Of a DNA stretch of 64,000 bases, positions 14,538-63,064 are shown in pieces. Within the stretch, counting starts at the first letter, position 1, and each line of letters opens with the position of its first letter. Source of the DNA: Cystobasidiomycetes sp. EMM_F5 (lineage: Eukaryota); contig JBPGPT010000029.1 in the NCBI GenBank assembly GCA_051047955.1, forward strand, positions 124,001-188,000, given 5' to 3'. Under the pieces are notes generated by a model that saw only the letters and a list, made by a program, of their open reading frames with translations, was not told the DNA's origin and did no database searches. The position numbers and the translations under genes are program-made.

Positions 14538-15119
14538 CTACCTGTGTCGTTCTAAGGCCTTTCTCCTCTCCTTCTCTGCGCGCTTTGCCCGCCAGTCGCA
14601 TTCTAGATTAAAGGCCGCACCAAACATGGCACTCATACGCTTAGGAACGAGCGTCCTCTGTGGATCATCGTCTCGCATCTTACTTACTATCTCAGCCGCA
14701 AACTCCATGCTCAGAGCTTGCAATCGCAGGCTTTGACAGTCTTGCCATTTTTGATTCCACAGGACAGCATCTCCTCGAACAATGTCGGTAATCCTCTCTT
14801 GAAAGATGGCTGCCTGTCCGCGAGGCAGTAGAGTGGCTGCCACTCTGAGCATGTTCCAATTAATGTCGAGCTTGCTGAAATCCACTAATGGCATGTCTCG
14901 CATCGACTCTACCGCCACTCCAGCAGTATACGAGCTACGACGCTTGCTAGGGGTCGCAAAGCCAGTGCTAACTGGAGGAATGTACATCTGTCCGACGGAG
15001 GAGGCTCTGGAACGGGGTGTCAAGAGCGGACTCGGGTACGGACTCTTCCTGAGGGTTGCTGCGGTTGCCGGATGCAGCCATCTCGACATTGCACCTACAG
15101 CTTTCGAGTAAACGCTCAT
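14538..15119 (-). CDS. Unassigned tandem family member 1 (193 aa)
   Basis: Uninterrupted ORF sharing MPLVD...NW...D-AVLWNQKW...RLQALSMEF with three adjacent ORFs. Confidence 0.8.
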   Translation of the reverse strand: MSVYSKAVGAMSRWLHPATAATLRKSPYPSPLLTPRSRASSVGQMYIPPVSTGFATPSKRRSSYTAGVAVESMRDMPLVDFSKLDINWNMLRVAATLLPRGQAAIFQERITDIVRGDAVLWNQKWQDCQSLRLQALSMEFAAEIVSKMRDDDPQRTLVPKRMSAMFGAAFNLECDWRAKRAEKERRKALERHR

Positions 15120-15556
15120 TAGGGATATATGGCTCCTTACAGATAATTATGGGGGAAATCAAGAGACCTGACCTGTGAAATGAAAAGCTGAGCTTGATGT
15201 CAGCAGCAAGCACTAATAATTCCGCATCAAAAGAAATAAAGGCTATGCCATAGTAGCTCGGTCAGTCCGTTATGGCGGCGCTCTTTGCTCTGATCATTCT
15301 GCTTGAAAACACTGCCAAACGGTCAAAGGGTGCTGTTCTTCACCTTTCTCCTGGGTTCGACGTATCGTTCGACGTATCATACGGCTTTATCTTAAACGAA
15401 TCAAATGACGACGTTCATGAGCTTACAGATTCGCTCAGGCAGTGGAGCTGCAGTTTTAACGTTACGGTAGAGCTGTTTTTGAACACCTAGAATACACTGA
15501 TCATGTCATGCTGCCATTCATAATTAGAAGACACTGCATACTACTCGTGCGGCCAG

Positions 15557-16159
15557 TCATGGCTTGCTTTGGCTTGATTGATATCGCTCAAGCCGCTGCT
15601 TTGTGAAAGCGTGTGTGAACAGATTCTTTAGTGATTCGCAGAGGTTCATTCTTACCTCCTGGACTTTAGGAATGTCCGTGTCTTTAAGGTGGTCTGTGAC
15701 CACTGCCACAAACTCCATAAGTAAAGCTTGGAGGCGCTGCTGCCTTATGCGTCCCCAAGAATCGTCCCAAAGATACTTGTCCCATTTGACTATTTTCTCC
15801 ACGCTGTCGCGCATGACAACAGGCGCCCCCAATGTTGGCGCAGCGTCCTGCAACGCCTTCCAGTCGAGCTCCAGTGCTTTGAGGTCAATTGTAGGCCACT
15901 TCTCACAGTGTGGACGTGCCATTACGCGTCGTGTGGGAGACGAGCTCGCGGAACTCGGAGTCGCCCCACCCAGACCGTGTTTCCGGTATCGGCGGAGCTG
16001 CCAACTATGTGCATCTTCCGCCGCTGCTTTACGATTTGGCGTTGTCGAAGAGCTGTACGACCGACGTGCGGAGCCATCGCTGGAGCTCGACCCAGATGCG
16101 GGGAAGGGATCTCGTTGCGGGCGACCGTGTTCGAAGCTGATTGAATGCGATCTCGACAT
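15557..16159 (-). CDS. Unassigned tandem family member 2 (200 aa)
   Basis: WPTID...LDW...D-KYLWDDSW...RLQALLMEF. Confidence 0.8.
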   Translation of the reverse strand: MSRSHSISFEHGRPQRDPFPASGSSSSDGSARRSYSSSTTPNRKAAAEDAHSWQLRRYRKHGLGGATPSSASSSPTRRVMARPHCEKWPTIDLKALELDWKALQDAAPTLGAPVVMRDSVEKIVKWDKYLWDDSWGRIRQQRLQALLMEFVAVVTDHLKDTDIPKVQEVRMNLCESLKNLFTHAFTKQRLERYQSSQSKP

Positions 16160-16683
16160 ACAAGGAAGTCTGATGGTTATTTTCAGAAGAACCCTGCTGG
16201 TGGGAATTGTTCCCTTGAGTTAGAGGAATCGGTAATCGTGAAGAGAAGCAAGAAGCAGAGACGAGGCAAAGGTACATCATCAAATCATTGAAGCGGACCT
16301 CGACCTGACGTCCCGTCTTGAATCGCATATCCCACGCTTTTGTCAGCGGCGTCTGTGCTAATACACAGCAGGTGGACTGTTGAACGCCTCTTTCGGCCGA
16401 GCATGTGAGACCGAGATGAGCTGCTTGATCTTCAGCGCGTGTAGCTTTTGGACGTATAGGCCGAACTGAATAACGACGGCGCGCCTGTTCGCCGACAAAC
16501 GTAGAAGATTAGCTTGAATCAGCATTTACAGCCTTTGAACACGATCCTGATCATTCACGTCTGCAACACTTGGCCTCGCGCCGCCTATTGTACATCTATA
16601 ATGATATCAGTTCGAGATCGTAAGGATGAGTATGGTAATGGTACGGCGGAATTGTGATCATCGGTATTGTGTGAATGAGAGAT

Positions 16684-17217
16684 TTATTTACGACGTGATT
16701 GGCGGCTGCTCGCTGCACTGCGCTCGCGTTGTATCTTTTCGTAAGCTTCTTCGAACATTTTTGGTATGTCACTTAACAAGGCCGCTCTCCGGGCATAGTT
16801 GTCCCCCACACCATTCAGCGTCAGCTGTAAGAATTCCATCGCCAGCGCTTGTAACCGTATCTTTCCATCGCTCTGCCAACGGGCATCCCAGAGACATTTG
16901 TCAGTCCTAACTACTTTCCGCACGCTGTGTCCAAGCACATGTCCGGCTTTGCTCGTAGTTGCCACTGCATGTATAATAGTCCAGTTCAGATCGCATGCAC
17001 CCACATCTACTGCAGGCATCTTCGTCTGCGTCCCAATGGCAGGTTGATTGGGACGCGCAGAGGTCCTACTGGCAGATCTTGGGCTCGCCACGCCCATACC
17101 ACTTCCGCGATATGCTAGATAGCCCAGATGCTGAGTTCTGAAAGCGGCCAACTCCGGGTCCGGTGTGTCCGGGTGCCTGTAACGACGAGACTCGTAGGGA
17201 TCTTGCATGCAAACCAT
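16684..17217 (-). CDS. Unassigned tandem family member 3 (177 aa)
   Basis: MPAVD...LNW...D-KCLWDARW...RLQALAMEF. Confidence 0.8.
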   Translation of the reverse strand: MVCMQDPYESRRYRHPDTPDPELAAFRTQHLGYLAYRGSGMGVASPRSASRTSARPNQPAIGTQTKMPAVDVGACDLNWTIIHAVATTSKAGHVLGHSVRKVVRTDKCLWDARWQSDGKIRLQALAMEFLQLTLNGVGDNYARRAALLSDIPKMFEEAYEKIQRERSAASSRQSRRK

Positions 17218-17610
17218 TCCCCGGTACGGTCGTGGATCTTTGTTCGGGACGATCCTGCCTTGTCCGGCCTTGCTGATTTGAACTCAACAAGCGACGTATA
17301 CTCCACTCTGTTATTTTGGCCAGCATGTTTGGCTTTTGAGCGACTTTGAGATTGACTGGCCGCTCTCTGCTTGTGAGAACACTGCCATCGATGCAAGAAG
17401 GCTGTGCCAGCGACTGTACAGTTGTCAAACAGCTGCTACAGTGACAAACATTGGAGCAGACGTCAGTCAATAGGTGATCTTGTTCACCGCAACATACAGA
17501 CAGCATCCTTCGGGAAGAACCTCGATTCAGTCGCGTTCTGTGCATCAAACAGGGTAGCTCGACAATCTACAATTTCGAGATACACCGATAGTGTAGTCGT
17601 AACGACGTAT

Positions 17611-18267
17611 TCAAGTAGTTACGGACGAATTGGCTGTCGGATGTCGGCTGGCGACTGCACGCTCTTGCTCTACCTGCTGGTATGCCCGGACAAACGTACG
17701 AGGTATCTCTTTGCATATTGCGGTTAAACGTGGTTCATCCGCTCTCATTCCCTTCAACGTCAGCGCCAGGAAAGCCATAGCTAGTGCCTGTAATCGCTGC
17801 TGCTGATACTAGACCAAATTTGCGTCCCACAAATGTACGTCAGTCTCGACAACTCGCAGGACGCTCTCCGAAACGATATGGCGTCCCATAGTCATTGTTG
17901 CCGCTATGCGTATGGAGGACCAGTCCAAATCGAAACGTCCAAGATCGACAGCAGGCATTCGTACTTCACCGCTATGCCGTGATCCGAGTCGTACAGACGA
18001 TACGCTACCCGATCTCGCACTACTTCCGCCTGACTTTCGGTTGCGACCAAGGTCAGCATTGCTCCATTCTCTAGGCGCGTTCCGGTTTGGACTGGGAATC
18101 CTGAGATGAACGCTTCGACATTGTTGTACACCATCGTGTGGCACAGATCCTGACAACGATGTAGAGTTCTCGCGACTTCGAACACGGCGATGACGTGTGG
18201 AGCTTGCATTCCGTGTTGTCGGACTCCTAGTCCACCACCCTGAAAATGTTGCGAAAATGTCTTGCAT
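17611..18267 (-). pseudogene. Unassigned tandem family member 4, interrupted by an in-frame TAG at 17811-17809
   Basis: First ATG at 18267. MPAVD...LDW...D-VHLWDANLV*YQQQRLQALAMAFLALTL...F-VRAYQQVEQER continues in the same frame to TGA at 17613-17611. Confidence 0.7.
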
Positions 18268-18753: not shown

Positions 18754-21700
18754 ATGCAAACGAGAGCTCTGCGGTCAGTCCGAGCTGCGTCGCTGGCATC
18801 AGTATCGACCAGGCGCATATCCCGGGCATTGCTGGGCAGCAGTATCGGCGACCATCGACGAGGGCCAGCTTCATTATCGGCGTCCATAACATCGCAGACA
18901 CCCAGGTCATCGTCTAGCATATCGTCAGCCTCGCTGGCTTCGTTGAACTCCGCCAAACCAGCTTCCATAAAGATTACCCAAAAAGCAGTCGCAAGCTTCG
19001 CAACAATGGCTCAAACGACGTCGAATGGCTCCAGCAGCGCGGACCCGTCCAACGTTTCCGCTAATAATGACAATGCCCTTTTCGCGCCGTCCCTAGCTCA
19101 TCTCGATGCCCGCAGACTGCCGTACGGCTACGAAAAGCCATCGCAATCTGATAATTATGCGACATTCCTGCCGAGTATCGAGCAGAGCGCCAACGACGAC
19201 AGGATGTACAGGCTGATACGTCTCGATAATGGTATCGAATGCATGCTCGTCAGCGATCCAAAGACGGACAAGGCAGCAGCAGGAATCAGCGTGCGGGCAG
19301 GTCATCTGAGTGATCCGGAGAACGCTCAGGGAATGGCACACTTCTGCGAGCATCTGTTATTCATGGGAACAGAGAAGGTGAGGTGCAGTTGCTGCGCTCA
19401 ATCATGCCCGCTAACTCAGAATCCTTAGTATCCCGCCGAGAACGATTACAACGAATACTTGTCGCAAAACAACGGAATGTCAAATGCTTTTACTGGCATG
19501 GACGAGACAGTCTACTTCTTTGACGTGCATCCTCCCGCTTTACCAGGCGCCCTCGACCGCTTTGCCCAATTCTTCATTGCGCCACTCTTTACCGATTCGT
19601 GTACCGAACGCGAGATCCTCGCGGTCGATTCTGAAAACAAGAAGAACCTCCAAGTGGATATGTGGCGGCTGTTTCAGCTTGAAAAGTCAACGTCGTCCAA
19701 GTCTCACCACTACTGGCGATTCGGTACCGGAAACAAGCAGACTCTTTGGGATACTCCGCTAAGCGAAGGCCGAGGGATCCGGAACGAGCTCATACAATGG
19801 TACAATGAGCACTACTCTGCCAACCTGATGAAGCTGGTAGTCATCGGAAAGGACTCTTTGGACGATCTAGCCAAACTCGCAAGCAAGACATTCGCGCCGG
19901 TCAAGAACAAGGACTTGCCTGCCCAAGATTATACTGGCTCTCCTTTTACGAGCGCTGAACTCCAACATCATGTCTTTGCCCAGACTGTTCGGAATATGCG
20001 AACTCTCGAGCTCCTTTTCCCTATCGCCGATCAAGACCCAATGTTTGCTAGCAGACCGGGCCATTTCATCACTCATTTCCTCGGACACGAAGGAGAAGGT
20101 TCAATCCTGTCTCACTTACGCAAGCTTGGATGGGCAGACTCGTTATCTGCCGGTGCAGGCTCAGGTGCATCAGGCTTCGATTTCTTCAAGATCAGTTTAC
20201 AGCTCACGGCAGCCGGATTGGCCAAGCACGAAGAGGTCGTCAAGATTGTATTCCAGTATATTGAGTTGTTGCGATCGACCCCGCCACTGGAGTGGGCATT
20301 CAAAGAGCAAAGCATGCTAAACGAAATCGGGTTCCGGTTTGTCGAAAAGGGGAAACCCTCGAGCTATGTTGTGCAGTTGGCCACACAGATGCAGAAACCG
20401 TTCCCGAGACAGTGGTTGCTCTCTGCGCCATGGCTGCTGAAAGATTGGCAGCCAAAATTGGTAGAAGAGCAATTGAAGAGCTTGACGCCGGAGAATTGCC
20501 GAATCACGGTGGCTTCACAAGAGCCTGTCAACGGGCTTGAGTGGGACCAGAAGGAGCAATGGTACGGAACACGGTATCGACAGCAACCCTTCGACAGTCA
20601 GACATTTGTACCGCAACCAGAAGTATCGAAGCCGGACGGCTTGCATTTACCTTCGCCAAATTCTTTCATTCCAAGCAATCTTGATATTTTGGGCACCAAG
20701 CCAAGTGGAAATGCTGGCCCAAGCCGGCGACCAGAACTCCTACGACAAACACCAACATCGAGATTATGGCACAAACAGGATGATCGGTGGTTCGTGCCGA
20801 GAGCTGGCGTCGCGTTATACATTAAGAGGTGCGCGTCTTCAGTGATCGCTGCACTGATATATTCGCTGATGCAAACCCGACATACAAAGCCCGATCATCG
20901 ACGCTTCTGCTGAAAACGCAGTAAGCACTCGAATGTATCTCGATCTGGTCATGGACGCCATGGCGGAGTACAGCTACGATGCCGATTTGGCTGGACTTTC
21001 GTATAGACTAGATTCGCAAGCAGACGGTATCATCATTCAGGTTGATGGCTACAACGACAAGCTACCCGTACTCGCTCGAGTTGTGCTAGAGAAGATGGCA
21101 AACATCAAGCTGGACCCGCAAAGATTTGACCTCATCAAGGATCAGAACAGGCGCAAGTATCAGAACTTCAATTTAGCGGAACCATCTTCGCACACCGGGT
21201 ATTATATGAGCTACGTTACATCAAACAAGGTACACTCTATCTCGGACAAGCTGGCTGCCCTCGAACCGATGACCGCACAATCTCTGCAAGACTACATACC
21301 GAAGCTGCTCTCCAAGCTACATGTGGAGTCACTGGTGCATGGCAATTTGTCAAAAGCGGATGCAATGGGAATCAGCGATATGATACAGGACATTTTCAAG
21401 AATGGCGCGCTTTCGAAAGACGAGAAGATTTCCCCTTTGAGCCTGCTTCTTCCGCCGTGTTTGTGCAAGCTTCGGATCATACCATGGACTTTCGCTGATT
21501 TGATCGCATATTCTAGCGTCCAACCTGGTTCTTCGCTTACCCGTGACTAATGCTGAAAATGTCAACTCTGCAATTGAATATGTAGGGAAATACCTGCTAC
21601 ACCTCAATGTCAGAACTAACATCAATACTCCAGTTCTGTTACACTGGCGACGATGGCGATGCCGCAATACGTACACGCAACATGCTCTTTTGTCAGCTCA

Positions 21701-44375: not shown

Positions 44376-47363
44376 CTAAGAGTCCTGGAAGCGAGTTCGC
44401 TTGGGGGCTGAGACTAACATATCCCTAGACGTATGTAAGGTGTCGATGTTCTCGACAGCCCTTTTGCCTAATGATGTACTGGGAGGCGGCGTGTAGCCCG
44501 GGCTCTTCCCTGAGCCAAGCCCGGACAGCAGAGCTTGGAAATCCTCGTTTGAGATTCCCAATCCCGAAAACGGATTGGTGCTTGCATCAAAATTCTCGGG
44601 ATCGAATTTCTCCAGAAGGTTTGTATCGGGCGCCATATCCGGATTCTGATGTATTTGTTTGAGGTGTAGTAGGTGCTTCTCTAGCATGCTTAGCATACCC
44701 TCTTTGGTGAATGGTTTCGGCAGGACATCGTTCATGCCATGCGAGAAATAAGTCAACACTTCATCTGGACGTGAATTGCCCGTCATGCTGATAATTGGGG
44801 TCATCGCGTCGAATTGTCGAATGAGGTGTGTTGCCGACACACCATCCAAATTTGGCATTGAAATATCCATCATGCAAATGTCGTAAACGCCATTCTGCAT
44901 CTTGTTGACAGCGTCTACGCCATCTACCGCAACGTCGATACTGCAGCCAAAGAGCTGCAGGAATTTCGTCGTAAGATTGCGACACACAGCGTCATCTTCA
45001 ACGAGAAGGACTCTTGGCGCTTGCGACCATCCTGGAATATACGTCGCACGTCGCACTATCATTGGCTGACTGGTAAGCGCACTTCTGACTGCCGTACTGG
45101 ATTGCCCTCCTCTAAGGGCAGCGGCAAAGGCGGCGATGTCCTTGCCTCCGTCGATGCCGCTGGTGCTTTGCTTGTTACTGCTAGTATTCTGCTGGGTCAG
45201 TACCCCTGTTGGTGTAAGGTTATCCAAGCTTTCCAAGCCGTCTACGAACTGGCTGCCATTGCTCGTGGAAACCATAAGAGCACCCGGCGTAATGGCAGTA
45301 CTCGGGCGTATAGGGGTCGAGCCTGGCAACGGAAAGTACGACATGCTGCTCGCCTCTGACAGTAGTCCTGTGCTAGGTCGCGTCAAGACTCCAGAAGACG
45401 GAGTAATATCCGACAAGCGATTGGTACCTAGACGAATCTCGCCAAGATTCGCAAATGCGGGATTGGTTGCTGATGATGTGATAGTGGCTGGCTCATTCGA
45501 TTCCAAAGACGCCGCTGTGGGAGTAGGTGAGCTCAAGTTGGCTTGTTGCCCTTGACTGAGATGGGATATATTTTGGTTTGATGGGTAATACGCATGCTGT
45601 GGAGACGGATTCAATGGCGGCAATTGCTGCGGATGTAGATGCTGAACATGACCAGGGTAAGAGGGCTGCATTTGTTGACGAGATGGTTGTGATAAATGAG
45701 ATATTGGCGATACGTATATAGCTGTGTCGCGCGAGCCTTCTGGACTAGGATTGTCAGACTTTGAGTCGGCAGGGCTGCTTTCATTATTAGCGTTGACACG
45801 CATACTTTGTTGAACGTTTGGCTGGGTCAGAGGTGTGGGCGGCATGCCTAAGGCCTGACTCGACAGGCCTTGGGCCTGCATGGACGGTAGCGAGAAATTT
45901 TGCTGATAGGGATTTGCGGCTGAACCAAGGCTAGCAGCAGCTGTGCCATTGATCATGAGACCGAGCGCTTCAGCACGGCGAGTGGTCTCGGTCATCTTGT
46001 CGTATCGAGCACGAGACAGCTCGGAATAGGTGGAGATGAGCTGTTGCGCTTCACGCGAGGGTGGAAAGGATGGCGTCTCCATAGGATCGGTCAAAACCAT
46101 GAGTCTAGCTTCCAAGCCAATCATGTATTGCAGAGTTGTAGCTGTAAAGGCATCTTGAGCAGCAATCGCTCTATGTTGTCCGAGCAGATCCGCCATGAGC
46201 GCCTGTACAACCACGCATTATCAGGCAAAGGTTGCTTAATTCACAATATTCGTGTGCCTACATGATATTGGGCCGAGAATTTGTTCAAGTGGACTTCGAT
46301 TTGTCTCTGGTTGTTTGTGAGGGCGGTAACCTGCTTTTTGAGCAAAGCAACATCGTCTCCGTAATTCGGACCGGCGAAGTATTCACCGTGACTACTCGCA
46401 GCTCCACCGCCTACTAGCTCCGGACGAGACGTAATGGGCGTGTCTGGCTTCTTCAGGCCTGTCAGCTTGCGCTGAGTTGAGAAACACGAAAGCGTCGGTT
46501 AGATGAGATGCAATGTGAAGAGGACGCCCATTGCTGCCCACCTTTATACTCTCCGCGCTTCCCTTCTGGTCTATACTAAAGTTGGGGTGCCTGAACTCCC
46601 ACGTCCCCTCGGCAGCGACGTCCTTGTCTTTTTCTGACGATGCTCCAGTCTTTTCATCGCGCGACCCAGCTTCGGGGTTCTTGACCTTGTGGAAATCGTA
46701 CTTGTTGAGTTGACGGACAAACGAGGCAAAGTTGCTATGCTTGAAGTGCTGTGGCAGGACTATTCGTGTAAAGTCGGGCATGTCCTGCGGCGTTCATGCA
46801 GATTGTCAGCTAGGCAGCGCACGGACACGAGAATTGAAAAAGCGTGCCTTGACTATGAAGCTGTCGTTCTTTGCGCCCCACGCGACTATGGGCTTGAAAG
46901 CTTCCACCTCGAGCATGCTGTAGAGCTTCCTGACAAAGTCGGACGTTCCCTGCCCGCCTGGGCCCTTTCTCGACGCCGTGATTGCGGATCCGAGCTCTTT
47001 TGCGTTCCCGACACCACTTCCAGCCCCGGTATCGTTATCGCCCATTGCTTCGTCGGGCGTGGGTTCTTGCTTTACAACTGCAGGATACCCAGCCGCTTTC
47101 GACGGGACGACGAGGGGAATGGACGGGAGCCTCGAGTGGGACGGATTAGCGTTGATGGGACTCGGGGTCAGCCTCGAAGCGAGCGCGCTGCCAGCAATTC
47201 TTGCACTGTTGTTGTTTGAAGTCCCAACTCCGCCTCGACCAGCCAGGCTCAGCGGGGCGGCACTGAGCGTGAATGGCCTGGCCTGTATGTGCGACTCGAG
47301 CTGCTCGACGGCGTACGGCGTCATGTTTTGCTGCGAGTGCAGCGTGTCTGGTTTTTGGGACAT
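44376..47363 (-). CDS. SKN7: Skn7/Prr1 response regulator (HSF-type DNA-binding domain + receiver domain)
   Basis: FVRKLYSML..., LPQHFKHSNFASFVRQLNKYDFHKV. Receiver RVLLVEDD...MMDISMPNLDG...SMT...PKPF. Confidence 0.93.
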
Positions 47364-47578
47364 TGGATATTGATATTGATTATTGTTGACGGCAATGGGC
47401 GACGTGGAGGCTCTGCAAGCTGATGCTGCGTACTCCTCGCCGTCTATCTCATAGTATTGCCCGCAGTTTCATTCTTCATACTTCATATTTCATGGCAGTT
47501 GGAATGGCGGAAAGCCGCTTCCACAACAAGCAAAAACACAAAACAAACACCGACCTGCTTTCCTTTTCTTCGTCAAGT

Positions 47579-61475: not shown

Positions 61476-62744
61476 CTAGAAACTTGCACGACGCTGCCAA
61501 CTGGGGGCTGCTGCTCCTCCGTTCGACGACGGAGAATATGGCTGGAAGCGCGGCCTCCGCTGTCCTATAGGAGCGGGACTCAGAATGCGAGTATCGTGTT
61601 GATCTTCGGCAATGCTGAGATCTCGCTTTGATATGTAATTGACGGCCTCCAACAACGGCATAGAAAAGGCCACATCTTCAGGGCTCGGCGGCGTCATACC
61701 TGGCGTGAAATTTCGCGACGAAGATCTTGATGAGCCGGTAAACGGAGCAGTACTGGTACTGGCGCCGTCTTCGGGGTGCATGAGGTTACGGGAATACCGA
61801 TTGCTACTTCTGCTGGCCCTACCTTGAGTGAGATCGGTGCGAGATTCCTCTTTGACCAGATCTCCTGCGTATTCTCTGTCTTCCTCGTCTGCCTCAAAGA
61901 CGTCCATAGCAGTACTGTCATCCTCATCCCCATCCTCCTCTTCTATATCGTCGTTATCGGCATAACCGTTCAAGGTTCGGCGACGCCTTCGGCTTCGCTT
62001 GTTCTTGGCGACTCTCTCGTTTGCATAGGCGATGAATGTGTTACGGCTGGCAGTATTTGCAGTCGCATTCATGCTGTAGCTCCTGGATCTGCCAAGAAAC
62101 GGCGGATGGGTCCCGCTGGCCAGCATCTCCATTCCCTGCCGCCCGTGCTCCCCACTGTGCGAGTAGTGATAACGCAGTCCGTTGGCGTTTCTATATGTCT
62201 TACCGCATGAGTCGCTGCAAGATGTTTCGCAAAGCAGAACAGACACATGCGAAGCTTCAGCTTTGTACCGCGACGGGACTGCCGGGCAGCTCACACATCG
62301 TGGCATCGAAAAGGATATTCCGCGTCGTTGTCCGGTCTTGAGCTTGTGTCTTTGCATTTGCCGTGAAGCTTGTGGTACTATATAATTAAAAGCGGGCCAT
62401 CAGAGAAGCCTGCACAAGCAAGAGTATTTTCGAGGGTTTACCTTTAGGCCATTCAATTGTCTGTACGCTTTTGAGCACGAAGCGTTGGGACAGCGAAATG
62501 GCTTTTCCTGGAGGATGTATCCAAAGTAGTCCCAGCAGCGTGGAAAAAGTTGGGGGATCAACGAGAGGATTACAAGAATGTCAGCGCGCTGTTGGAAACA
62601 GTCCAAGTCTGGATCAAGACTTGAACGTACGATATTTGCGACCCAGCGTCTTCCAGCTGTCGACAGCGGTTCCGTCGACGTTGACGCTACGGCTTCGGGA
62701 GTTTCAGCATCTTCATCGCCTCCGGACGCTGAGTCCAATGCCAT
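61476..62744 (-). CDS. C2H2 zinc-finger protein with Sfp1-type fingers; multi-exon
   Basis: EKPFRCPNASCSKAYRQLNGLK and C.DSCGKTYRNANGLRYHYSHSGEHG. Confidence 0.75.
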
Positions 62745-63064
62745 TGCCTGGGTTGTCAATATCTGCGACGGTGCTGAGCTCAAGCAAAAAGAGCTACGCC
62801 GGCCTGCTTGGGATCCTAGAGAAAAAAATATGACTGCACGTGACTGCCGCGCCCGCAATGAAAATTTTGCTCGAGCCAGCGAAGAATTTTACAACACGAA
62901 CGATACGGCGACAGGTGAGGGACACGGGGGACAGCGCGGCCGTTATTCATAGGAATACGTCGGCGGAAAAGCGCAGGTATGGATCGCGTTTTCAGCATCG
63001 AAATCCGGCTTCTACAACAACAGCGACTGATTCACTGACTCTGCGGAGGCTAGCGAAAGCAGCC

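Follow-up and report, generated by a model that had tools for sequence, protein, structure and literature searches.

What are the four small paralogous genes that stand side by side among housekeeping genes of the basidiomycete yeast Cystobasidiomycetes sp. EMM_F5, and what kind of system do they represent? We addressed this in a window of 64,000 nucleotides (nt) of its genome (NCBI GenBank assembly GCA_051047955.1, contig JBPGPT010000029.1, positions 124,001 to 188,000 of the forward strand), which had earlier been described in a first-pass annotation made from the letters alone; all positions below count from the first letter of the window. The array consists of old duplicates with a core under purifying selection: three intact genes and one probable pseudogene. 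As its best explanation we favor, at a probability of roughly 0.45, a long-established tandem family that evolves by birth-and-death and encodes small, basic, soluble and non-enzymatic intracellular regulators, in which an N-terminal arm is combined with a four-helix binding module.

The paralogues, their core and their arms

The array is made up of four paralogous frames on the minus strand with start-to-start distances of 1040, 1058 and 1050 nt (about 1.05 kb), in agreement with the first-pass description of four same-strand frames about 1.1 kb apart. The copies, and the R-L-Q-A-L-x-M-x-F signature that each of them carries, are:

14538..15119, minus strand: copy 1, intact, 193 amino acids (aa); helical core starts at Met76 (14894 downward)
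15557..16159, minus strand: copy 2, intact, 200 aa; core begins at about 15898
16684..17217, minus strand: copy 3, intact, 177 aa; core begins at about 17019
17611..18267, minus strand: copy 4, a frame of 218 codons interrupted by a stop; probably a pseudogene
14700..14726, minus strand: signature of copy 1, on the long central helix
15710..15736, minus strand: signature of copy 2, from the signature pattern search
16831..16857, minus strand: signature of copy 3, from the signature pattern search
17770..17796, minus strand: signature of copy 4, downstream of the stop codon

Common to all four copies is a core of about 105 residues with pairwise identities of 29-43%. Of its 103 ungapped columns, 19 are invariant: P4, D7, W15, A22, V39, D42, L45, W46, a run from R57 to F65, F91, A94, E101 and R102. 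Over 100 shuffled realignments, such columns averaged 1.65 and never exceeded 6. The C-terminal block motif quoted in the first-pass annotation is found in the copies, and its remark on the lack of long DNA identity between them is likewise borne out: the best inter-copy similarity is confined to patches of 43-47 nt at 72%. The highest pairwise identity, 43%, is that between copies 3 and 4, although a tree of the copies gives no firm branching order.

Synonymous sites are saturated: the proportion of synonymous differences (pS) is 0.69-0.88 versus 0.37-0.52 for nonsynonymous ones (pN). The ratio of nonsynonymous to synonymous rates (dN/dS) from codon models is 0.118 (Goldman-Yang, GY) or 0.155 (Muse-Gaut, MG) for the four copies and 0.045-0.090 for copies 1-3, these values being whole-history averages from a protein-guided alignment with saturated synonymous sites. 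A dN/dS fixed at 1 is rejected with twice the log-likelihood difference at 67-72 for the four copies and 44-45 for copies 1-3 (1 degree of freedom). Synonymous saturation and purifying selection thus uphold the earlier suggestion of old duplications with a retained core; a dN/dS near 1, which had been named together with a lack of transcription as an argument against functional genes, is not what these sequences display.

An AlphaFold2 model with copy 3 placed first has a predicted local distance difference test score (pLDDT) of 89 and a predicted template-modelling score (pTM) of 0.82, with helices at 15-22, 28-41, 48-70 and 77-107; an independent model of copy 1 (pLDDT 75) agrees with it in the main helices. 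The predicted core is thus a compact bundle of four helices, after which each protein closes with a basic tail. The invariant residues are mainly hydrophobic or small, plus D7, D42, R57, Q59, E101 and R102, and there is no His, Cys, Ser or Lys among the 19 invariant core positions. Such a set would suit tight interior packing, with some residues pairing in salt bridges, rather than an active site.

Ahead of the core the proteins have arms of 66-103 aa, with 17-28% Ser/Thr and a net charge of +4 to +12; the isoelectric points of the whole proteins are 9.9-11.4. The arms had been regarded as merely variable, but their alignments indicate that they are homologous: for copies 2 and 3 the alignment spans some 50 residues (0/2000 shuffles), and for copies 2 and 4 it has a p of 0.015, the remaining four of the six copy pairs being not significant. 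Copies 1-3 share a motif in the arm:

14949..14963, minus strand: G-x-A-[ST]-P motif of copy 1, 21 residues ahead of the core proline; candidate proline-directed phosphosite
15956..15970, minus strand: G-x-A-[ST]-P motif of copy 2, 22 residues ahead of the core proline
17080..17094, minus strand: G-x-A-[ST]-P motif of copy 3, 23 residues ahead of the core proline

The placement of this motif has a p of 0.0003, the motif having been selected after viewing the alignment. [ST]P sites number 11 versus 6.4 expected (p 0.03) and full CDK-type sites 4 versus 1.0 expected (p 0.015). The database record for copy 2 is a 121-aa version starting at Met80; a start at Met1 is likelier, because the arm ahead of Met80 aligns with that of copy 3. 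A hydropathy scan of the four copies found no transmembrane segment (maximum 19-residue hydropathy 0.65-0.98) and, the N-termini being polar, no hydrophobic signal peptide, as the first-pass annotation had said; this is by hydropathy only, no dedicated predictor having been run. On this measure, with polar N-termini and maxima below 1.0, the hydrophobic signal peptide expected of a cluster of secreted effectors is not seen.

The lesion in copy 4

The first-pass annotation listed open frames of 177-218 codons. This stands for copies 1-3 but not for copy 4, whose frame is interrupted midway through the domain by a TAG at codon 153 (17809-17811); if translated to the stop, its product would have 152 aa, including 49 core residues. 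The affected stretch is:

17806..17817, minus strand: copy 4 lesion, four codons including the TAG, with a poor in-frame fit and a good +1-frame fit to the paralogues

Compared with the paralogues these codons score -10.3 in frame and 12.0 in the +1 frame, in which the conserved Trp is regained. The lesion ranks first of 728 shifted four-codon windows, the best non-overlapping one scoring 5.0; its shifted-frame score is mostly due to the Trp, and the identical shifted Trp would also arise from a simple substitution with a G after it. In our judgement a compensated micro-frameshift is the likely origin of the lesion: it explains together the lost Trp and the stop. The Leu replacing the second Trp of the domain, earlier recorded as a peculiarity of copy 4, is thus a genuine residue difference but not a separate one, being part of the stop-bearing lesion. 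On either side of the stop the frame of copy 4 is open and conserved, matching copy 3 at 47% and 39% identity, and the break is therefore probably recent. The A-[ST]-P arm motif is absent from this copy.

The contrary view is that copy 4 is alive, its TAG being recoded to Trp by stage-specific adenosine-to-inosine (A-to-I) editing, read through, or the product of an assembly error. The open, conserved frame on both sides of the stop speaks for it, as does the TAG adenosine, which has a U at -1 and is predicted to be unpaired in four window sizes; the U at -1 is true of any TAG. A preference of editing for U at -1 and an unpaired adenosine is reported for filamentous ascomycetes (PMC11156358), and edited stops are reported to derive frequently from non-TGG codons (PMC10776026). 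A-to-I editing is also reported in Microbotryum, which belongs to the same subphylum as the host; however, the preference reported there (PMC13608869) is for C at -1, in conflict with the U at the copy 4 stop. Further, the stop sits two codons off the conserved Trp column, where the paralogues carry Asp, Arg or Ser, and editing would set a Trp into this polar column, whereas all four lesion codons, poor in frame, fit well in the +1 frame. The hairpin around the TAG is weak (-2.5 kcal/mol), and the full-length copy 4 protein was not found in the protein-collection searches. We consider it highly improbable that copy 4 is alive by any of these routes, and restorative A-to-I editing is a weaker rival to the compensated micro-frameshift.

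Relatives of the domain and rival explanations

A profile search (HMMER) with the array domain against 1.84 billion protein representatives, using a weak profile built from 3-4 sequences only, gave four matches at E <=0.001. Three of them are copies of the array itself; the remaining one, P0007, is a repeat protein of 500 aa with an E of 3.4e-4 summed over 5 repeats, lacks the motifs and was judged a chance match. A protein-candidate search for outside relatives gave 2/8000 matches, both own copies, and one of longer proteins 0/8000. Pattern-seeded locus searches confirmed 0/236 metagenome, 0/19 viral and 0/17 prokaryotic stretches. The best single match among PDB sequences has an E of 0.44 (repeat searches 0 and 0), tblastn against phages gave two records at E 5, and one of three PHROGs queries matched at E 0.27; the best ESM Atlas scores, 0.79 and 0.87, are under the lead threshold, and Rfam gave no match. 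In Pfam, hmmscan (E up to 10) matched none of the four whole proteins; three of eight pieces matched at E 0.13-0.19, each to another family. Scans of the array proteins against family libraries gave no match to a HET, NLR or toxin family. As far as sequence comparison reaches, the domain is unclassified and without detectable relatives outside the array, and the first-pass claim of an unrecognized conserved domain holds, since no family match extends across the copies. No paper on the family was found in a literature search that left supplements out of scope and did not look for a description of the host genome; the genes may well stand in an annotation table as hypothetical ones.

Within the 18.3-Mb host genome, searched with a loose first pass that very distant copies may escape, four protein queries recovered the four copies and one other match at E 0.08, which gave no score with the core profile. 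The signature pattern found the four copies exactly and three one-mismatch matches, versus four in a reversed-pattern control; against the core profile, these three reach no more than about 1 bit.

Structure comparison covered 48,161 solved chains for the copy 3 model, and Foldseek was run against PDB and viral models for the copy 1 model and against viral models for the copy 3 model. Foldseek gave no match at E <=0.001 in these sets, and VIA-align none with Z >=8 for either model. The check proposed in the first-pass annotation thus yields a confident helical model without a standout match to a characterized domain in these sets; the blank fold searches do not show a new fold. The viral protein model A0A2U8UIC0 (87 aa) superposes on the copy 3 core model (16702-17025, minus strand) with a Foldseek probability of 0.98 and template-modelling (TM) scores of 0.51/0.61, at 17% identity and E 0.26: this is an unexplained lead.

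Three candidate families were checked and found no profile support shared by the copies. The tail of copy 2 (residues 149-196; 15572-15715, minus strand), alone among the copies, matches C-terminal segments of bacterial Ser/Thr kinases (PADLOC PD-T4-6, E 3e-5; NCBIfam, E 0.018), but hhalign of the core with 18 host kinase C-lobes gave 0.1% probability and hmmsearch -1.7 to 0.3 bits, without shuffle controls. The TERT_C model (PF21399) finds the telomerase of the host elsewhere, its C-terminal extension at C1:271037-274427 serving as the control, and misses the array. The array motif V-V-x-x-D-x-x-L-W-D we take to be MADF-like; MADF and Myb/SANT-like models (PF10545, PF13837) gave no hmmscan match with whole proteins or cores at E up to 10, and genome searches gave no MADF/Myb candidate, though the controls went unmatched too. 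MADF/Myb chains are not among the top 50 fold matches of the copy 3 model; TEAD4 has a Z of 4.9 with the weaker copy 1 model.

The locus has the marks of a birth-and-death tandem family: adjacent same-strand paralogues, no detectable outside homologue, and purifying selection alongside a disabled copy. On this account local duplication would have given four copies that diverged to synonymous saturation, with copies 1-3 kept intact and the frame of copy 4 probably lost recently. The Ser/Arg-rich arm, probably disordered and with a conserved proline-directed site, may act as a phospho-regulated targeting segment, and the four-helix bundle most likely serves as a non-catalytic module that docks on its partner, either nucleic acid or a protein of the nucleus; from this anatomy we infer a nuclear location, phosphorylation and a binding role, and the account further presumes current expression. 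The lineage-restricted, locally expanded intracellular family proposed at first pass is consistent with the tandem paralogues, the blank search of the representatives and the want of a transmembrane segment. Several observations weigh against our account. Codon usage does not separate the array frames from shifted frames or spacers, and the averaging and saturation behind the dN/dS values bear on the selection signal. The exact 193-aa copy 1 protein is present in an NCBI-sourced record, yet such records exist for copies 1 and 2 only, copy 3 having a Logan source alone. Basic Ser/Arg-rich arms are frequent in fungal proteins of diverse function. The top chain for the copy 3 model, at Z 7.3, is the FtsX membrane bundle, near-tied with the PNPase helical domain, a TMEM16-type domain and the telomerase thumb (6.8 each), with identities of 1-8% given for this leading group; overall fold-match identities are 1-17%, the matches are generic, and such scores can, by the tool's own remark, stem from a common helix arrangement. 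Finally, copy 4 lacks four of the 23 residues invariant in copies 1-3, the Trp of the lesion and three others, every change being non-conservative, but in the same leave-one-out comparison the other copies lose 2-5, so the count alone is no mark of copy 4.

Among the alternatives, the array might be a fast-evolving member of a known fungal family that has passed beyond detection, orphaned by thin sampling of the class. The paralogues are just 29-43% identical and a profile of 3-4 sequences is weak, and the nearest relative found for the neighboring insulysin is only 71% identical (candidates of 260-830 aa only), with Pucciniomycotina proteins the closest among the named matches; yet HMMER returned own copies and one repeat protein, the pLDDT-89 model has no standout match among the solved chains, and the kinase C-lobe lead failed, and we hold this account to be unlikely. 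A genetic-conflict or nonself cluster, of poison-antidote drivers or incompatibility-type genes with a partner specificity differing per paralogue, would suit a small, lineage-restricted, tandem and highly diverged array with one dead copy. It fits poorly with an average core dN/dS of about 0.1 among paralogues, with just four copies at a single locus in a repeat-free, single-copy region amid housekeeping genes, and with proteins that have no transmembrane segment and no HET, NLR or toxin match. With purifying selection, a single-copy transposon-free region and only four copies, the first-pass connection with conflict, nonself recognition, meiotic drive or sexual-stage genes is unsupported, and we regard this reading as rather unlikely. 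Its fullest form, with the core a new four-helix specificity domain and the array an undescribed Pucciniomycotina nonself or drive system having a partner per paralogue, copy 4 being either a specificity since abandoned or a sexual-stage member recoded under certain conditions, is doubtful.

Origin from a mobile element or virus, as a domesticated Harbinger-type Myb/SANT-like (MADF) piece, the thumb of a reverse transcriptase or a helical protein of a virus, captured and then multiplied at the locus, also has points in its favor. The inter-helix motif presumably recalls MADF; five telomerase entries are in the top 50 of the solved chains (best Z 6.8, root-mean-square deviation (rmsd) 3.8, 96 aligned, 3% identity); and there is the 87-aa viral model. 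Conversely, Pfam models of MADF, Myb and TERT do not match, TERT_C picks out the host telomerase instead of the array, FtsX-type, PNPase and TMEM16-type bundles score equal to TERT, the viral model is outside the top 50 for the copy 1 model, and neither the viral nor the prokaryotic candidate stretches were confirmed. The array has a GC content of 0.52-0.55, the same as the host; there are no convincing terminal repeats, and its 4.7-kb region has no other DNA match in the genome and no transposon remains. We hold this origin to be improbable. That all four copies are non-functional relics, with a purely historical selection signal, is hardly credible: one copy is broken and codon usage is uninformative, but three frames have stayed open while synonymous sites diverged to saturation, and these three retain arms of full length and the motif.

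Setting and comparison with known systems

The contig is 202 kb long, and the array is some 59 kb away from its end. The STE23-type neighbor of the array, so labeled at first pass, is confirmed by Pfam M16 as an insulysin, and its database record assigns the host to the class Cystobasidiomycetes; the gene has five introns in 1098 codons (3.3 kb coding). At the rate of this one gene, a single ancestral gene of array-copy size would be intron-free by chance with P of about 0.4, and the four intron-free copies count as one ancestral observation. The intron-free state recorded at first pass in an intron-rich setting is therefore real but not unusual, and retroposition or transfer is not needed to explain it. 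By contrast, the 'GT34-like' label of another neighbor found no backing (0 Pfam matches, 2 pieces scanned). The single compared locus with an insulysin, at 50% identity, has no other gene in common with the window.

Other observations concern the surroundings. An upstream in-frame ATG of the insulysin (18754-19005, plus strand) adds 84 residues, with 12 Arg/Lys, 1 acidic and 28 Ser/Thr, and the extension resembles a presequence for mitochondria that an alternative start would supply; the database record starts at 19006. Intron-like GT..AG stretches at 15312-15382 and 17436-17497 (minus strand) precede copies 1 and 3 by some 190-220 nt and are candidate introns of 5' untranslated regions. The spacers of these copies share a 40-nt similarity at or just past the intron-like 3' ends (p 0.004 by shuffles, yet 7/524 controls are equal). 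Two adjacent frames, 61476-62399 and 62400-62888 (minus strand), each have a zinc-finger-like C-x(4)-C-x(3)-Y-x(3)-NGL stretch and presumably resemble SFP1-type factors. Frames in 44376-47468 (minus strand) have an HSF-like DNA-binding stretch and a response-regulator receiver stretch, a resemblance that we take to be to SKN7.

Fungal genomes commonly contain ancient tandem arrays of orphan genes in which one copy has died. What is new is the unclassified domain; as a kind of gene family, the orphan tandem array with a pseudogene is known (PMC10684091). With a confident predicted fold from four sequences and long-kept selection, this orphan module merits a family entry and a structure. Nothing found links the array to a pathway; its weight would rise if it turned out to serve nonself recognition or drive, or if RNA editing restored copy 4, outside the ascomycetes.

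Three known domains share features with the core. The PNPase alpha-helical domain (PDB 3h36, 1whu, 9qh3) superposes with helices 2-4 (Z 6.8, rmsd 2.9, 76/78 residues) but has 4-15% identity, a Z tied with unrelated bundles, and neither the N-terminal P-x-V-D segment nor helix 1. The telomerase thumb or C-terminal extension (PDB 5ugw, 7bg9, 6d6v, 6zdp, 6uso) superposes with the whole model (Z 5.4-6.8, 95-104 residues), though with an rmsd of 3.5-4.6, 3-8% identity and a similar tie with unrelated bundles; the array is, moreover, without a reverse-transcriptase domain. Like the MADF/Myb-SANT-like domains, as we presume, the core has a hydrophobic helix, an L-W-D loop and two further helices in a basic protein, but it differs in an extra conserved N-terminal helix and in the absence of a profile match. 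At the level of genes, the Sordariomycetes premature stop codon (PSC) pseudogenes restored by A-to-I editing (PMC10776026) resemble copy 4 in the single in-frame TAG, the open conserved frame, the U at -1 and the unpaired adenosine. Copy 4 differs from them in its phylum, in a stop off the conserved Trp column, and in that a compensated frameshift is the better account. Lastly, the lineage-specific genes (LSGs) of Neurospora are reported to form clusters near telomeres with HET-domain genes (PMC10684091). Like them, the array genes are small, domain-less, clustered and without detectable outside relatives; unlike them, the array has housekeeping surroundings and a conserved core that is predicted to be well folded.

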